Origin: an uncultured Ruminococcus sp.
Lineage (GTDB): Bacteria; Bacillota; Clostridia; Oscillospirales; CAG-272
NCBI GenBank assembly: GCA_964430105.1
Contig: CAYSEF010000005.1
Location: 183 to 64,182, forward strand
Length of the DNA stretch: 64,000 nt
Direction: 5' to 3'
The translations under genes were made by a program, and so were the position numbers. Positions within the stretch are counted from its first letter, which is position 1. Every line of letters starts with the position of its first letter. Of this stretch, positions 26,220 to 30,125 are shown one piece after another. The notes beneath the pieces are model-generated. The model did no database searches, was not told the DNA's origin, and saw only the letters and a list, made by a program, of their open reading frames with translations.

Positions 26220-26372
26220 GATTCTCCTCCATTCTGATGACTGTAAGCATCAGAGCATATACCTAATTATACCATATATTCACAAAGCGTGCAATCATAA
26301 CGCAAAACTTTAATTTACAAAAAAACAAAAACGGAACAGGGGTATTTCCCATTCCGTTTTTTATTTTTTCTA

Positions 26373-27185
26373 TTATTTGTTGTCGATTGTGACATTGAGG
26401 TGGTTGTACGGTATTTCTATCTCGAACTTGTCGAAGGCTTTCTTTACATCCTCCCACATATCGAAATACACAGTCCAATAGTTCGCAGATTCACACCAAA
26501 TACGAAGCTTGATTGTAACAGCGGATTCACCATGAGCAGCTACAAAAACCTCCGGTGCAGGCTCTTTTAAGATAAGGTCGTTCATAGAGGAGGTTGCAAG
26601 AAGAACCTTACGAACGAGATCAATATCGGTGTCATAAGCCACATTGAAATCGAAATCGATACGACGAGTTTTTTCAGTAGAAAGGTTATTGATAGTGGAA
26701 TTTGCAAGAGTAGAATTAGGTACTGCAATATCCTGATTATCGCCTGTTGTGATTCTTGTGTAGTAAATTCCAATTTCAGTGACAACTCCGCTGACATCGC
26801 CGGCAATGATAAAGTCTCCTACATGGAACGGCTTGCAGAACATAATGATAATACCACTTGCGATATTTGAAAGTCCGCCTTGAAGTGCAAGACCTATTGC
26901 CAAGCCACACGAGCCAAGTACAGCTACAACAGAAGATTCAGGTACACCAAGTACAATCACAGCTGTCAATACAACAATAAGCTTCAATCCGATTCCGACA
27001 AAATTAGTTACAAAATTTTGTACATTTATGTCTGCCTTCTGAAATAACTTAGTTTTGGTAACAGCCTTTGTCAATGCTTTAACAACAGCAAAACCAACTG
27101 CAATTATCAGCAATGCCAAAATCAGGTTCAGCACAAACGGAACAACATAAGCGTTCACAAAGCTGGAAATCCACACCATATCCAT
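26373..27185 (-). CDS. small-conductance mechanosensitive channel (MscS family)
   Basis: TM helices followed by PFHVGDFI...GVVTEIGIYYTRITTGDNQDIAVPNS. ATG 27185 is preceded by GGAG. Confidence 0.85.
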   Translation of the reverse strand: MDMVWISSFVNAYVVPFVLNLILALLIIAVGFAVVKALTKAVTKTKLFQKADINVQNFVTNFVGIGLKLIVVLTAVIVLGVPESSVVAVLGSCGLAIGLALQGGLSNIASGIIIMFCKPFHVGDFIIAGDVSGVVTEIGIYYTRITTGDNQDIAVPNSTLANSTINNLSTEKTRRIDFDFNVAYDTDIDLVRKVLLATSSMNDLILKEPAPEVFVAAHGESAVTIKLRIWCESANYWTVYFDMWEDVKKAFDKFEIEIPYNHLNVTIDNK

Positions 27186-27296
27186 AATATACTCCTTAAA
27201 AATAAGATAACGCATTTATTATACTATATGGATGCAGGAAATTCAACCTGATTTTCGAGAAATTTGTGAAACTTCTATTAAGCAAAGTATACTGAA

Positions 27297-29588
27297 TTAC
27301 TTTGAGTTTTTGCGCAATTCAACTCGTCTTATCTTACCGCTGATAGTCTTAGGAAGTTCGGGCAAAAATTCAACGATTCTGGGATACTTATACGGTGCGG
27401 TATGCTCCTTAACGTAATTCTGTATCTCCTTGACCAATTCGGGTGAGCCTTCCTTACCGGGAACAAGCACAATAGATGCCTTTACGACCTGTCCGCGGAT
27501 TTCATCAGGTGCAGCTGTAATAGCACATTCCAAAACATACGGAAGTTCCATGATAACAGATTCGATTTCAAAGGGACCTATGCGATAGCCCGATGACTTA
27601 ATAACATCATCAACTCGTCCGACATACCAGAAATATCCATCTTCATCACGCCATGCGGTATCGCAGGTATGATAGTAACCGTCATGCCAAGCCTCTTTTG
27701 TAGCTTCTTCATTACCATAATAACCACTGAACAAACCGGCAGGAACACCGTTTTTAGTGCTGATAACGATTTCACCTGTTTCACCGACTTCGCAGGATTT
27801 TCCGTCAGGTGTAAGAATATCTACATCGTAAAGTGGTGATGGATGTCCCATGGAGCCCGGCTTAGGTGTATCACCGACAAAGTTACCTATTACAAGTGTT
27901 GTTTCTGTCTGACCAAAGCCTTCCATAAGCGACAAGCCTGTGTACTCCTTAAACTTGTAGAATACCTCAGGGTTGAGTGCTTCACCTGCTATTGTAGCGT
28001 GCTTAAGAGATGAGAGATCGTAATTTTCGATACCGGCCTTTATGAAGAAACGGAACATTGTAGGCGGTGCACAGAATGTTGTAATCTGATATTTAGCGAA
28101 CAGCGGAAGGAGATCAGCCGCATCGAATTTTTCAAAATCATATGCAAAAACACATCCTTCGCACAGCCACTGACCATAGAGCTTACCCCAAAGAGCTTTT
28201 CCCCAGCCTGTATCGGAAATTGTAAAATGGATACCGTTCGGATCAGCATTGTGCCAATATCTGGCAGTGATATAGTGACCGAGCGCATATCTGTAGCTCT
28301 GAGTAGCGAGCTTAGGATAGCCTGTTGTACCACTTGTGAACATCATATACATGATATCTTCACCACATGGAGTATTTTCACGACGTTCAAATACAGGAGA
28401 GAAGCTCATAAATTCGTCATTGAACGAATGCCAGTTATCCTTATGACCATTGACAATGATCTTTGTGATATCCTGCGGAACGAGCTTTTCTGCAAGTTCA
28501 GCCTGATGAGCTGTATCTCCATCCGCTGTACAAATGATAGCGGTTACATTTGCTGCTTTATAGCGATATTCAAAATCATGTTCAACGAGCATATGTGTTG
28601 CAGGAATAGCAACCGCACCAAGCTTATGCAGACCCATCATAGCTACCCAGAACTGCCAATGTCTTTTGAGAACGATCATTACCTTATCGCCTGTACTGAT
28701 TCCGAGAGATTCAAAATAGTTAGCGGCACGGCTTGACAATTCGGAGATATCCTTAAATGATAAGCGAGTTTCTTTCTTATTAACATCAAGATGAAGAAGT
28801 GCAGTCTTATCAGGAGTTTTAGCGGCAATAGCATCTACTGTATCGAATGCAAAATTATATTTGTCTTCGTTATGGAATTTGATTTCCTTAAGCTTGCCGT
28901 TTTCCTCGATACATTCGATGAATCGCATAGCAACCGGATCCTCGGGAAGCGGTGCAAGCTTGTCTTGAACAGTCGGCTCAACTTTTTCTTCTTCCTGTTC
29001 GGGATAATCATAAGCTGCTCCGCCTGCTGAAATTACGATAGCGAGAATATCACAGTCTGCACCGTCGTATGCGATCATACCGTGTGGCTTTGAGCTGTCA
29101 TAATAAATCGAGTCACCGGGTTCAAGAATTTCTGTATGTCCATCAATAACTACTTTAAGCTTACCTGATAGGATATAGTCGTATTCCTGACCTTCATGTC
29201 TGCTGAGCTTGATAGGCTGATTCTGTTCTTCTTCGGAATACTTTACAGTTACATGGAACGGTTCAGCGATCTTATTTTTGAAAAGCGGTGCAAGGTTATT
29301 GTAGCGGAAGCCTTTACGACGCGCAATAGGAAGACCGCCTCCGGCTCTTACAATACCGTATTCAGCAAGAGTTGGGCTGGAACCTTTGAGAAGGTCAGTG
29401 GTGTCAACGCCAAGACGAGCCGCGCACTTATAAATAAAACTGAAAGAAAAGTCGGCTTCACCTGCTTCAAGCTCACGATAAGCTTCCAGGGTAACACCTG
29501 TACAAGATGCCATTTCTTCTTCGGAAATTTCGCAAATCAAACGAGATTCACGAATTCTGTCCGCAACTTCTTTAAGGATTTTTTCCAT
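27297..29588 (-). CDS. fusion protein: XRE-type HTH + cupin domain + AMP-forming acyl-CoA synthetase (MACS/ACSM-like)
   Basis: 763 aa. Residues 1-70 are HTH_XRE-like. Roughly 115-190 is a cupin (GQEYDYILSG...GDSIYYDSSKPHG). Roughly 230-763 is an adenylate-forming enzyme (MFTSGTTGYPK, GFGQTET, GYYHTCD, GRVDDVIKSSGYRIGPFEIE, PKTISGKIRR). Confidence 0.8.
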   Translation of the reverse strand: MEKILKEVADRIRESRLICEISEEEMASCTGVTLEAYRELEAGEADFSFSFIYKCAARLGVDTTDLLKGSSPTLAEYGIVRAGGGLPIARRKGFRYNNLAPLFKNKIAEPFHVTVKYSEEEQNQPIKLSRHEGQEYDYILSGKLKVVIDGHTEILEPGDSIYYDSSKPHGMIAYDGADCDILAIVISAGGAAYDYPEQEEEKVEPTVQDKLAPLPEDPVAMRFIECIEENGKLKEIKFHNEDKYNFAFDTVDAIAAKTPDKTALLHLDVNKKETRLSFKDISELSSRAANYFESLGISTGDKVMIVLKRHWQFWVAMMGLHKLGAVAIPATHMLVEHDFEYRYKAANVTAIICTADGDTAHQAELAEKLVPQDITKIIVNGHKDNWHSFNDEFMSFSPVFERRENTPCGEDIMYMMFTSGTTGYPKLATQSYRYALGHYITARYWHNADPNGIHFTISDTGWGKALWGKLYGQWLCEGCVFAYDFEKFDAADLLPLFAKYQITTFCAPPTMFRFFIKAGIENYDLSSLKHATIAGEALNPEVFYKFKEYTGLSLMEGFGQTETTLVIGNFVGDTPKPGSMGHPSPLYDVDILTPDGKSCEVGETGEIVISTKNGVPAGLFSGYYGNEEATKEAWHDGYYHTCDTAWRDEDGYFWYVGRVDDVIKSSGYRIGPFEIESVIMELPYVLECAITAAPDEIRGQVVKASIVLVPGKEGSPELVKEIQNYVKEHTAPYKYPRIVEFLPELPKTISGKIRRVELRKNSK

Positions 29589-29630: not shown

Positions 29631-29939
29631 AAAAAAACAAAAAAGTCCGTCTCATTTTGAGACGAACTTGTGATTTTCAAATTCGCGGTACCACTCAAAT
29701 TGCATATTACTATGCCACTCTGCGGACTCAAGCAAGTCCTGTGCCATCACGCAGCACCAGCGGGGAACCATTACTCAGCGTGAATTTACAGACAAAACAC
29801 ACTTTTCCTTTCCCGACTCGGAAGTGATTGGATATCTGTCTACCGTGCTCGCATTCCACCCGCGCGAACTCTCTGTAGCGGTGCATGACCGAAATCCGTC
29901 TTCGTCACAGTCTTTAGTTACCGTATAGGTTGTTTAATT
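29631..29939 (-). promoter_or_regulatory. T-box riboswitch leader (apparent specifier AUC, Ile) with intrinsic terminator
   Basis: The minus strand carries a GA/K-turn motif, AG bay AGAGAG, distal loop GGTGGAA and T-box sequence AATTTGAGTGGTACCGCGAA (complement of 29682-29701). The terminator AAGTTCGTCTC/GAGACGGACTT plus T-run competes with an antiterminator carrying the UGGU bulge. Confidence 0.85.
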
Positions 29940-29945
29940 TTCGTT

Positions 29946-29975
29946 ATTATACCACAGTTAGCAGTCGTTTGTCAA
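29946..29975 (-). promoter_or_regulatory. sigma-70-type promoter of the T-box leader
   Basis: Minus strand TTGACA (29975-29970), 18-nt spacer with TG, TATAAT (29951-29946). Confidence 0.6.
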
Positions 29976-30125
29976 GAATATTTTCTCAAAAATCTGCATA
30001 AAATTCAAAACTTACCCATTTTTGTGCTGAATTTTATGCAAATTTTTCAATTATTATTGAAATAACTGTATATTTGTGCTATACTGACTACAAGTTAATA
30101 TTCACAAATCACAGGAGAAGATCAC

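Follow-up and report, generated by a model that had tools for sequence, protein, structure and literature searches.

An HTH-cupin-acyl-CoA synthetase fusion behind an isoleucine T-box in Oscillospirales: a probable ligase for branched-acid salvage

The window, as we call the whole stretch of 64,000 nucleotides that was analyzed, carries on its minus strand a promoter, a T-box leader, a gene for a fusion protein, and a gene for an MscS-like channel; the parts of these that are given below lie on that strand as well. The fusion gene (P0001, 27297..29588) is a single open reading frame that starts with an ATG at 29588, ends at 27297, and encodes 763 amino acids. Its host belongs to the Clostridia, from gut or rumen. 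The promoter (29946..29975) is of the sigma-70 type, TTGACA-18-TATAAT with a TG extension, and matches the consensus at 12 of 12 positions. The MscS-like gene (26373..27215) lies downstream of the ligase, with no terminator between the two genes. It was rejected as an operon partner because the pairing is not kept beside orthologues, and it is probably outside the system.

The encoded protein begins with an XRE-like HTH, continues with a Cupin_2 barrel, and ends in a MacsMa-type acyl-CoA synthetase that is complete, which confirmed the fusion in one 763-aa polypeptide that the sequence-only reading of this DNA had proposed. In Pfam scans, AMP-binding (residues 253–624, E 4e-63), AMP-binding_C (residues 674–752, E 4e-20), and Cupin_2 (residues 127–184, 48 bits against a cut-off of 27) were matched, whereas HTH_3 (residues 12–66) scored 21.5 bits, slightly below its cut-off of 23. 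Many orthologues and stand-alone partner proteins exceeded the HTH_3/HTH_19 cut-offs. The AlphaFold2 model of the window protein contains five helices at residues 2–67, a beta barrel at 86–186, a disordered acidic linker at 191–207 (pLDDT < 50), and the ligase from about residue 219; as a monomer it shows no confident contact between module and ligase. On the DNA, the five-helix domain (residues 1–70, acidic, with a family net charge of about -5) occupies 29379..29588, and the cupin barrel (residues 76–190) occupies 29019..29363. The barrel holds an invariant triad, H131, E135, and H169 (codons at 29196–29198, 29184–29186, and 29082–29084). An acidic, variable, and partly disordered linker (residues 191–218, 28935..29018) leads to the AMP-forming synthetase (residues 219–763, 27300..28934).

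Of 301 genomes sampled from the same order, at least 109, Ruminococcus flavefaciens included, carry the uninterrupted fusion. All of the best 150 order-level matches, which come from 109 genomes, begin at or before query residue 8 and extend to residue 699 or beyond. About three-quarters of these 150 have no stop inside the match; the remainder have one or two, likely from read-through past gene ends. Independent sources contribute more than 120 protein clusters of this length, ∼760 aa, the fusion is present in the isolate genomes of R. flavefaciens SAb67 and Neglectibacter timonensis, and all fused forms were monophyletic in a tree (SH-aLRT 100). The possibility that the fusion is artificial, with a frameshift or a chimeric contig making one gene out of a regulator and a ligase, which the sequence-only reading had named as grounds for refutation, was thus itself refuted. 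Split HTH-cupin and ligase gene pairs do occur in other species, one of them behind an Ile T-box, and lend an artificial joining its only support, but against the near-complete coverage, equal lengths, isolate genomes, and monophyly described above we regard it as virtually excluded. The association of the HTH-cupin with this ligase lineage is ancient, and the module is either fused or encoded by a separate gene upstream. The system is present in at least a third of the sampled genomes of an order that is dominant in gut and rumen, and a spread of this extent gives it relevance for cross-feeding, for nitrogen economy, and for predicting the amino-acid auxotrophies of uncultured Oscillospirales.

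All of the ligase motifs listed earlier from the translation were found again. The ANL motifs A3 (TSGTTGxPK), A5 (GQTE), the A8 hinge (GRxDD), and the A10 catalytic lysine are present, and the window protein has its P-loop at residues 418–426, the pocket sequence GWGKALW at 461–467, GQTET at 559–563, the hinge GRVDD at 657–661, and the catalytic lysine at K752, which is invariant in 84 of 84 family members. One of the listed motifs, GYYHTCD, is a deviant motif III. Whereas 83 of the 84 members have YHTGD, the window copy alone has YHTCD, with a TGC codon at 27663..27665 that places Cys642 where the motif III glycine should be; the tyrosine and aspartate are intact, and the signature Y-x-x-G-D is not met. 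In Acs1Mt, the G501A substitution lowered kcat more than 200-fold (PMC3438747). The window copy may be a weak enzyme, or Cys642 may be a consensus error.

The best solved relative of the ligase was MacsMa (3ETC), which matched residues 239–760 with 628 bits and gave a Foldseek E-value of 8e-67. The preferred substrate of MacsMa is 2-methylbutyrate, and its pocket, taken here from a secondary source, has Trp259 together with a glycine that replaces Acs Trp416 (PMC10455477). The corresponding residues here, W467 and G559, are invariant in 84 of 84 members. The same source states that MacsMa adenylates C3–C8 acids, from propionate to octanoate, and that the CoA step is efficiently completed only with 2-methylbutyrate (PMC10455477); with so broad an adenylation range, homology alone cannot give the substrate. 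The best NCBIfam model was MbcS (NF047394), at 439 bits, far below the equivalog cut-off of 850, so that by these scores the window ligase is a relative of MbcS and not an MbcS equivalog. MbcS selectively activates exogenous 2-methylbutyrate and isobutyrate (PMC10026030).

The gene is preceded by a T-box leader (29655..29917) with a stem I, a specifier loop, a T-box sequence, and a terminator/antiterminator. RF00230 matched 29917..29655 over the full model (1–219) with 63.5 bits and E 3e-12, below the gathering score of 93; the leaders of orthologues score 78–110 bits with the same model. The upstream T-box that the sequence-only reading had presumed is real. The specifier codon is AUC (Ile; 29826..29828) in the context CCA-AUC-A-CUUCCGAG, and the ileS T-box of the same genome has an identical register, AUC-A-CUCCCGAG. 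The T-box core, AGUGGUACCGCG (29684..29695), presents a UGGU bulge for pairing with the tRNA 3' end, and an intrinsic terminator with a 12-bp stem followed by a U-run spans 29643..29669. The leader thus has a specifier codon in the stem I loop, a UGGN bulge, and competing terminator and antiterminator structures. Only 25 tRNA genes were found in the assembly, and a tRNA-Ile, for which the leader calls for anticodon GAU and discriminator A, is not among them.

Among the 80 best loci, 78 had upstream sequence, and 74 of these carried an identical T-box core upstream of the orthologous gene. ATC stood at the specifier position in 72 of the 75 T-box leaders that precede orthologues. A T-box is nevertheless usual and not universal, since relatives have at least five fused copies without it.

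In many species a second fusion lies in tandem behind a Val (GUA/GUC) T-box. At eight loci the second fusion has its own T-box with GUA at the specifier position, and there are more cases elsewhere. The pocket motif differs between the two classes: it is GWGKALW in the Ile-gated fusion and GWAKAMW, which is narrower, in the Val-gated fusion. With specifiers extracted automatically by anchoring on stem I pairing, GWGKALW went with ATC in ∼70 copies (54 unambiguous, the others having ATC among several candidate calls) and GWAKAMW with GTA/GTC in 11 copies. Two exceptions to this match look gene-converted. All five pocket-proximal class positions of the window protein are of the Ile type. Class-specific positions are denser in the HTH-cupin module (10–12 per 100 residues) than in the ligase (3.2 per 100 residues). 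No Leu-type (isovalerate) fused paralogue was found among ∼110 fused copies. These pairs offer testable candidates in which each acid would have its own ligase behind a T-box for the matching tRNA, and Gly/Leu versus Ala/Met is a candidate signature by which two pocket residues predict the acid taken by each copy.

An Ile-gated ligase could also serve isoleucine synthesis by making propionyl-CoA, which would be reductively carboxylated to 2-oxobutyrate and pass through ilvBNCD. A 2-oxobutyrate synthase route from propionate occurs in some anaerobes, and ilvBNCD is present in this genome. The C3–C8 range of MacsMa includes propionate (PMC10455477). The restriction of the efficient CoA step to 2-methylbutyrate in that enzyme speaks against this route, as do the Ile-type side chains Gly463 and Leu466, which are smaller than the Val-type Ala463 and Met466, the opposite of what a C3 substrate predicts. 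Moreover, the Val-gated paralogue makes sense only with isobutyrate, which implies a logic of one acid per amino acid. We consider the propionate route very improbable.

Rumen cellulolytic bacteria have been known since the 1960s to require isobutyrate, 2-methylbutyrate, and isovalerate and to make valine, isoleucine, and leucine from them through reductive carboxylation, which is why cattle are given isoacids in their feed. In the rumen, 2-methylbutyrate and isobutyrate are known precursors of isoleucine and valine (PMC7356843). In the literature searched, we found no assignment of the genes for the acid activation step or of their control, no description of the present system, and no biochemical or genetic data for any member of the fusion family.

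A later part of the proposed pathway adjoins the fusion in one relative, where the gene order is Ile T-box, first fusion, Val T-box, second fusion, NTPase, VorD, VorB (562 bits, cut-off 399), the beta and gamma subunits, and IlvE (475 bits, cut-off 307). There VorDABC and IlvE come after the Val-gated copy, in the same orientation and with little space between genes. The 2-oxoacid:ferredoxin oxidoreductase and branched-chain aminotransferase that the sequence-only reading had suggested looking for elsewhere in the window's genome have counterparts there: an NTPase-VorDABC cluster, with VorB at 550 bits, and two genes for class-IV aminotransferases, which are candidates for IlvE at the family level only. 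The VOR and aminotransferase genes are unlinked and have no T-box. The genome also encodes a complete de novo isoleucine route, ilvA and ilvBNCD, so that a ligase route would be salvage beside de novo synthesis and not obligatory.

Taken together with the MacsMa/MbcS kinship, ATC in 72 of 75 leaders, the Val paralogue, and the VOR/IlvE context, which support the earlier proposal of 2-methylbutyrate activation for isoleucine, the fusion is most likely a branched short-chain acid ligase that takes 2-methylbutyrate, although both activity and substrate are inferred. Without uncharged tRNA-Ile on the AUC-specifier T-box, transcription would stop at the terminator of the leader. When made, the ligase would convert exogenous 2-methylbutyrate to 2-methylbutyryl-CoA, a VorDABC-type 2-oxoacid:ferredoxin oxidoreductase would carboxylate this reductively to 3-methyl-2-oxopentanoate, and IlvE would aminate the latter to isoleucine, beside the ilvA/ilvBNCD route. 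The direction of flux is likewise an inference. We give a probability of about 0.65 to this reading as a whole, that is, an Ile-gated 2-methylbutyrate ligase for isoleucine salvage whose HTH-cupin acts post-translationally.

The same product could instead be used mainly by FabH as a primer for anteiso fatty acids, with the ligase induced by isoleucine shortage. Isoleucine is the normal source of the anteiso primer, from which we infer that isoleucine starvation would starve primer synthesis as well; the best NCBIfam model, MbcS, is a primer supplier in S. aureus; and the acyl-CoA product could go to both fates. However, an unfused ligase paralogue already lies within the fab/acc operon of the window's genome, so lipid primers could come from that separate copy, and the VorDABC and IlvE genes that follow the relative's Val-gated sister fit amino-acid synthesis. 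T-boxes, moreover, generally control the supply of their cognate amino acid. A main role in lipid synthesis is therefore improbable.

The sequence-only reading had further suggested that the HTH-cupin part adds ligand sensing or DNA binding with autoregulation. Of the two, ligand or metal sensing is now the better reading, and DNA-binding autoregulation found no support. The evidence on this point is indirect. The HTH has a net charge of -4.9 in the fused proteins (range -2 to -9 over 84 members) and -6.1 in an alignment of mostly stand-alone partners, compared with -4 in HppE and +3 in 1Y9Q. Recognition-helix positions 34–39 vary among members, 88% of which carry Glu or Asp at position 35. 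No conserved inverted repeat was found upstream of orthologous loci. Directly upstream of the -35 element, the window has a 13-bp perfect inverted repeat, TGCATAAAATTCA-N20-TGAATTTTATGCA, which was rejected as an operator; it is absent from orthologous loci, unique to the window, and for that reason not counted as evidence of autoregulation. A MIR444 match at 29985–30055 coincides with this repeat and is meaningless in a bacterium.

DNA binding is not excluded by these data, because HTH scores of relatives lie above the Pfam cut-offs, R11 and R16 do not vary, and the highest TM-score was obtained with 1Y9Q. The protein could be a trigger enzyme like BirA, PutA, or NadR, at once ligase and transcription factor, with a working XRE-type domain that would bind DNA depending on a cupin ligand or on the ligase's catalytic state and would control the protein's own or other genes, e.g. 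vor or ilvE. In addition to the two arginines and the window's inverted repeat, this is consistent with HTH_3/HTH_19/HTH_31 scores above cut-off in many orthologues and stand-alone partners, with profile matches to the HTH domains of 434 repressor, SinR, and the PbsX family, and with the similarity to 1Y9Q, an annotated HTH_3 regulator (TM-scores 0.63/0.70; sequence match E 1.5e-4 to 3e-9). On the other hand, an HTH that is acidic in 84 of 84 members resembles the non-DNA-binding alpha domain of HppE, the variable and acidic recognition helix and the lack of a recurring inverted repeat at orthologous loci are unfavorable, a 1:1 ratio of factor to induced enzyme would be unusual, and a dedicated RNA switch already controls the gene. 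We regard a trigger enzyme as unlikely; judged from such sequence features, from the HppE homology described below, and from the split gene pairs, "regulator" is a doubtful reading of the N terminus, and the module probably acts on the enzyme rather than on DNA, although there are no binding data.

The cupin points to a metal site. All 84 fused proteins have the triad H131/E135/H169, and in the N-terminal alignment its residues are kept in 96, 95, and 94 of 96 rows, respectively. The triad aligns residue for residue with H138/E142/H180 of HppE, which we take to be the iron ligands of that enzyme. HppE matched the module over profile positions 8–183 (E 4.3e-7), which indicates full-length homology, and gave a Foldseek E-value of 3.5e-14 with TM-scores of only 0.47–0.49. 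Most likely, the HTH-cupin binds metal and ligand and, in a manner specific to each paralogue, gates or assists the ligase at the post-translational level; its function is inferred throughout. A more specific proposal, which we hold tentatively and at somewhat below even odds, is an HppE-type metal center that works with the ligase as a sensor or as a second catalytic site and is neither repressor nor relic. As a sensor, it may turn the ligase off once the cognate 2-oxoacid or amino acid occupies the His-Glu-His site, which, if true, would be a new kind of post-translational control of adenylate-forming enzymes. As a second catalytic site, the bolder option, it may carry out an unrecognized chemical step in the anaerobic conversion of branched fatty acids to amino acids. 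An HppE-like metal-cupin that consistently accompanies a CoA ligase, whether in one polypeptide or in two, could point to a new mode of control for ANL enzymes.

Compared with known systems, the module shares with HppE homology over its whole length (190 residues), the 2-His-1-Glu triad, and an acidic HTH-like domain; HppE, HEPD, MPnS, and Psf4 all combine an HTH-like alpha domain and a cupin with a mononuclear iron site. It differs in sequence, with an identity of ∼20%, and in structure, with TM-scores of 0.47–0.49 versus 0.63–0.70 for 1Y9Q. HppE-type enzymes act on phosphonates with O2 or H2O2, and none is tied to a CoA ligase, whereas the hosts of the fusion are strict anaerobes and the fusion has no phosphonate context; we infer that O2 chemistry by the module is unlikely. 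The XRE-HTH and cupin regulators, such as E. coli PuuR and Vibrio cholerae 1Y9Q, share domain order and fold with the module. However, their HTH is neutral to basic (+3 in 1Y9Q) compared with -5/-6 in the module, and they are free-standing and have operators, whereas the module is always found with a ligase and has no conserved operator. BirA-type trigger enzymes also join a DNA-binding-type domain to an adenylate-forming enzyme, an analogy of architecture only; BirA has a winged HTH and proven DNA binding, against which the sequence features of the fusion argue.

With regard to the ligase, MacsMa (MA4008, Methanosarcina acetivorans, 3ETC) aligns end to end with window residues 239–760 and shares the alternate pocket tryptophan (W259, W467 here) and the glycine that replaces the Acs tryptophan. 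Unlike the fusion, it is archaeal, lacks the HTH-cupin module, and has no known T-box, and its physiological role is not established. MbcS (SAUSA300_2542, Staphylococcus aureus), which represents the fusion's best NCBIfam match and activates 2-methylbutyrate and isobutyrate, also lacks the N-terminal module and supplies FabH in the making of branched fatty acids rather than serving amino-acid synthesis; its better functional analogue is the unfused paralogue in the genome's fab operon. No T-box regulon member of the acid-CoA ligase salvage type was found in the literature searched. The leader itself shares the class I transcriptional design of the T-boxes that control branched-chain amino acid supply genes in Firmicutes (ileS, ilv-leu, and transporters), including the AUC specifier of the genome's own ileS leader and the terminator/antiterminator switch, but here the controlled gene encodes an acid-CoA ligase, for salvage from fermentation acids.

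The open reading frame at 29588..27297 on the minus strand encodes a single 763-aa protein, and its Pfam domains confirmed the HTH-cupin-ligase fusion proposed by the sequence-only reading. AMP-binding (residues 253–624, E 4e-63), AMP-binding_C (residues 674–752, E 4e-20), and Cupin_2 (residues 127–184, 48 bits) were recovered, whereas HTH_3 (residues 12–66) reached 21.5 bits, slightly below its cut-off of 23. More than 120 protein clusters with 64–91% identity share the length and domains of this protein. A scan of one genome per species gave at least 596 relatives, the best 80 of which were full-length fusions in every case, with the isolates Ruminococcus flavefaciens SAb67 and Neglectibacter timonensis among their sources. 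When the order was sampled evenly, 211 of 301 genomes contained a homologue; the 150 best matches in this sample, from 109 genomes, covered nearly the whole query, and 35 of those 109 genomes carried two fusions within 5 kb. These matches, the clusters of equal length, and the presence of the fusion in isolates rule out an assembly artefact. Only about three full-length fusion clusters were obtained at 50% clustering, indicating a single compact family, and in a tree of ligase domains a branch with SH-aLRT support of 100 separated all fused forms from split and unfused ones.

Upstream of the gene, on the same strand, we found a perfect TTGACA-18-TATAAT promoter, a full-length match to the T-box leader at 29917..29655 (Rfam E 3e-12; its 63.5 bits fall short of the gathering score, 93), and a leader terminator at 29669..29643. 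The specifier loop reads CCA-AUC-A-CUUCCGAG, in a register identical to that of the ileS leader of the same genome (AUC-A-CUCCCGAG). The T-box core AGTGGTACCGCG was present upstream of 74 of the 78 best loci having upstream sequence. A strict pattern placed ATC at the specifier position in 72 of 75 leaders (those 74 loci and the window); in the remaining three, the stem is variant or the leader is truncated.

In eight of the best loci, a second HTH-cupin-ligase gene lies behind the first, with its own T-box confirmed by Rfam, and the specifier site changes from AUC-A-CUUC in the first leader to GUA-G-CUUC in the second. Twenty more regions, taken from other families within the order, show this Ile/Val tandem pattern, in one case with GUC. 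The pocket motif GWGKALW / GQTETTL accompanies ATC in about 70 copies (54 of the calls for GWGKALW copies are unambiguous, and the remainder have ATC among several candidates), whereas GWAKAMW / GQ(S/T)ESTM accompanies GTA or GTC in 11. Two tandem pairs, at loci L061 and L087, are exceptions: comparison of segments revealed that the ligase region of the Val-gated copy is Ile-type, matching the upstream copy, but its HTH-cupin part is still Val-type, which points to gene conversion within the tandem pair or to a collapse in the assembly. Judged from the motifs alone, the Val-type pocket should be tighter, because the side chains of Ala and Met are larger than those of Gly and Leu, and this would fit isobutyrate (C4) there and 2-methylbutyrate (C5) in the Ile-type pocket. 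At each of the five class positions close to the pocket, the window protein has the Ile-type residue. The module (the N-terminal HTH and cupin) is where the two paralogues diverge most: Ile-type and Val-type tandem copies are 47–53% identical in it and 72% identical in the ligase, compared with 62–76% and 78–79%, respectively, within a class; class-specific positions number 10–12 per 100 residues in the module and 3.2 in the ligase.

The proposal that a T-box precedes the fusion held for most of the best loci, but it is not universal, since at least five fused copies in relatives have none (L119, on contig C25 of R. flavefaciens SAb67, and L128, L131, L132, and L140). Some of these copies carry the pocket variant GWGKAVW. 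In the tree, L128, L131, and L132 cluster with the Val (GUC) copy L129, which comes from the window's own taxonomic family, with a fork support of 81%.

Downstream genes in relatives connect the fusions to a pathway. In the Ruminococcaceae bacterium UBA1730, one strand carries an Ile T-box, fusion A, a Val T-box, fusion B, and genes for a 220-aa P-loop protein, VorD, VorB (562 bits; cut-off 399), beta and gamma subunits, and IlvE (475 bits; cut-off 307); the start of this arrangement, as far as VorB, was found in three genomes. In the window's own genome, contig C19 encodes the P-loop protein followed by VorDABC (VorB 550 bits), which supplies the 2-oxoacid:ferredoxin oxidoreductase that the sequence-only reading had proposed to look for, and a PFOR gene is also present. 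The branched-chain aminotransferase sought with it is less certain: there are two class-IV aminotransferase genes, which are candidates for IlvE at the family level only. The P-loop protein (about 220–230 aa; C19:34419-35117, and 6647-7309 of L117, the UBA1730 locus; motifs GHYGSGKTN and DIVNPYFRT) is always encoded directly upstream of VorD-VorB-beta-gamma, in this genome and in relatives. It had no NCBIfam match and only a sub-threshold nSTAND3 match in Pfam, and it may assist the reductive-carboxylation oxidoreductase as an accessory NTPase.

Ile T-boxes in the window's own genome were located on ileS and the salvage ligase. The de novo route, ilvB, ilvN, ilvC, ilvD, an unnamed 392-aa gene, and ilvA, follows a Val (GUC) T-box at C20:22554-22833, and ridA-leuA-leuC-leuD-leuB follows a Leu (CUC) T-box at C2:7263-7524. 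With ilvA behind the Val T-box, the threonine dehydratase of the isoleucine route would answer to tRNA-Val, not tRNA-Ile. ARAGORN found no tRNA gene for Ile, Ala, Asn, Asp, Phe, or Tyr among the 25 detected in the assembly, which is an estimated 97% complete; tRNA clusters, probably sited next to rRNA operons, are missing from the bins, and this limits the matching of T-boxes to tRNAs. The same genome also encodes an unfused MacsMa-type ligase (544 aa, sharing 48% identity with the fused ligase; C51:2569-4203, minus strand), embedded in a fabF-accB-fabZ-accC-accD-accA-ligase-acpS operon, that is likely an MbcS-like supplier of branched fatty-acid primers from exogenous acids.

Taken together, the comparative results agree with the classical pathway of the rumen, which makes Ile from 2-methylbutyrate and Val from isobutyrate (PMC7356843). 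On this reading, a shortage of the matching charged tRNA would induce the corresponding activating ligase. The conversion of a branched acid to isoleucine, as originally suggested, is thus well supported by the T-box specifier, the Val sister, the pocket motif, and the link to VOR and IlvE; the substrate of the window ligase and the direction of flux are inferred, and no member of the family has been assayed.

The window copy itself has an unusual residue at codon 642 (27663-27665, minus strand), where TGC encodes Cys and turns the ANL signature motif III from YHTGD into YHTCD. YHTGD is found in 83 of the 84 family members, including the nearest relative (91% identical), and Cys occurs only here, through a single-base change from GGC. 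In Acs1Mt, the Gly501Ala substitution lowered kcat more than 200-fold (PMC3438747). Cys642 may mean that this strain has a weak form of the enzyme, or it may be an assembly error in the consensus. At the other near-invariant family positions, the window protein departs from its relatives only three times (T50S, T277S, and G385N), and so the gene is not in decay.

An MscS-type mechanosensitive channel gene (26373-27215, minus strand) begins 81 nt after the ligase gene with no terminator between them. A promoter-like site of its own lies at 27246..27218, and 26361..26327 holds a strong terminator. Co-transcription with the ligase gene under the Ile T-box is possible in part, but relatives do not keep the two genes side by side. 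A perfect 13-bp inverted repeat, TGCATAAAATTCA-N20-TGAATTTTATGCA, lies at 29985-30055, in the region between the promoters from which the ligase gene and a PHP phosphoesterase gene (30126+) diverge; an Rfam match to MIR444 there is spurious. This repeat was not found upstream of orthologous ligase genes, and it may therefore be an operator of the PHP/aldo-keto reductase operon or of an unrelated factor.

The HTH-cupin module, the element particular to this finding, is a partner of the ligase, not an add-on. It also exists as stand-alone proteins of 187–199 aa that are 52–62% identical to residues 1–196 of the window protein. A [Clostridium] cellulosi-type contig has a promoter, an Ile T-box (ATC), and separate genes for HTH-cupin (192 aa) and ligase (557 aa); in a Gallacutalibacter contig the two genes lie 4 nt apart without a T-box, and R. 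flavefaciens and Acutalibacter have an additional, more distant split pair (181–182 aa and 558–559 aa).

A full-length AlphaFold2 model, built on an alignment of 84 sequences, predicted a five-helix bundle (residues 2–67) followed by a beta barrel, a disordered acidic linker (residues 191–207), and a ligase that is confident from about residue 219. No confident module-ligase interface was seen in this monomer model. Residues 84–104, the most conserved stretch of the module, stayed below a pLDDT of 50 there; when the N-terminal 200 residues were modelled alone (overall pLDDT 88.6), this stretch formed beta strands with a pLDDT of 84–88.

The suggestion that the N-terminus is a DNA-binding regulator is probably wrong. 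The HTH is acidic: its net charge is -4.9 (range -9 to -2) across 84 fused proteins and -6.1 in an alignment mostly of stand-alone partners. At position 35 of the recognition helix, 88% of members have Glu or Asp, and the residues at positions 34, 36, 38, and 39 are variable. Nor do the sequences upstream of the promoters at orthologous loci share an inverted repeat. These observations make DNA binding by the module doubtful, and a trigger enzyme, that is, a ligase acting also through DNA binding, is still possible but unlikely.

Foldseek gave HppE, 1Y9Q, HEPD, MPnS, and Psf4 as the best matches for the module. Its profile aligned with HppE over positions 8–183 (E 4.3e-7), placing H131, E135, and H169 on H138, E142, and H180 of HppE, which are its iron ligands, and all 84 fused proteins keep this triad. 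The most economical inference is that the module binds a metal and a branch-specific ligand and acts on the ligase; candidates for this ligand are the acid and its CoA ester, the 2-oxoacid, and the amino acid.

The enzyme kind itself is known, and in the published record that we searched the system is an undescribed variant, which is relevant to an old question of rumen microbiology and offers clear experimental handles. The aligned alpha domain of HppE is acidic (-4), as is the HTH of the fused family, unlike the HTH of 1Y9Q (+3). The best solved relative of the ligase is MacsMa (3ETC; 628 bits over residues 239–760), in agreement with Foldseek. MacsMa prefers 2-methylbutyrate and has an alternate pocket Trp259 and a Gly at the position of the Acs gate Trp (PMC10455477); it shares these pocket residues with the present family, in which their counterparts, W467 and G559, never vary; the catalytic K752 is likewise invariant. 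MbcS of S. aureus, selective for 2-methylbutyrate and isobutyrate (PMC10026030), provides the top NCBIfam model, but the score of 439 bits is far under the cut-off of 850. The window protein is thus related to both MacsMa and MbcS and an equivalog of neither.
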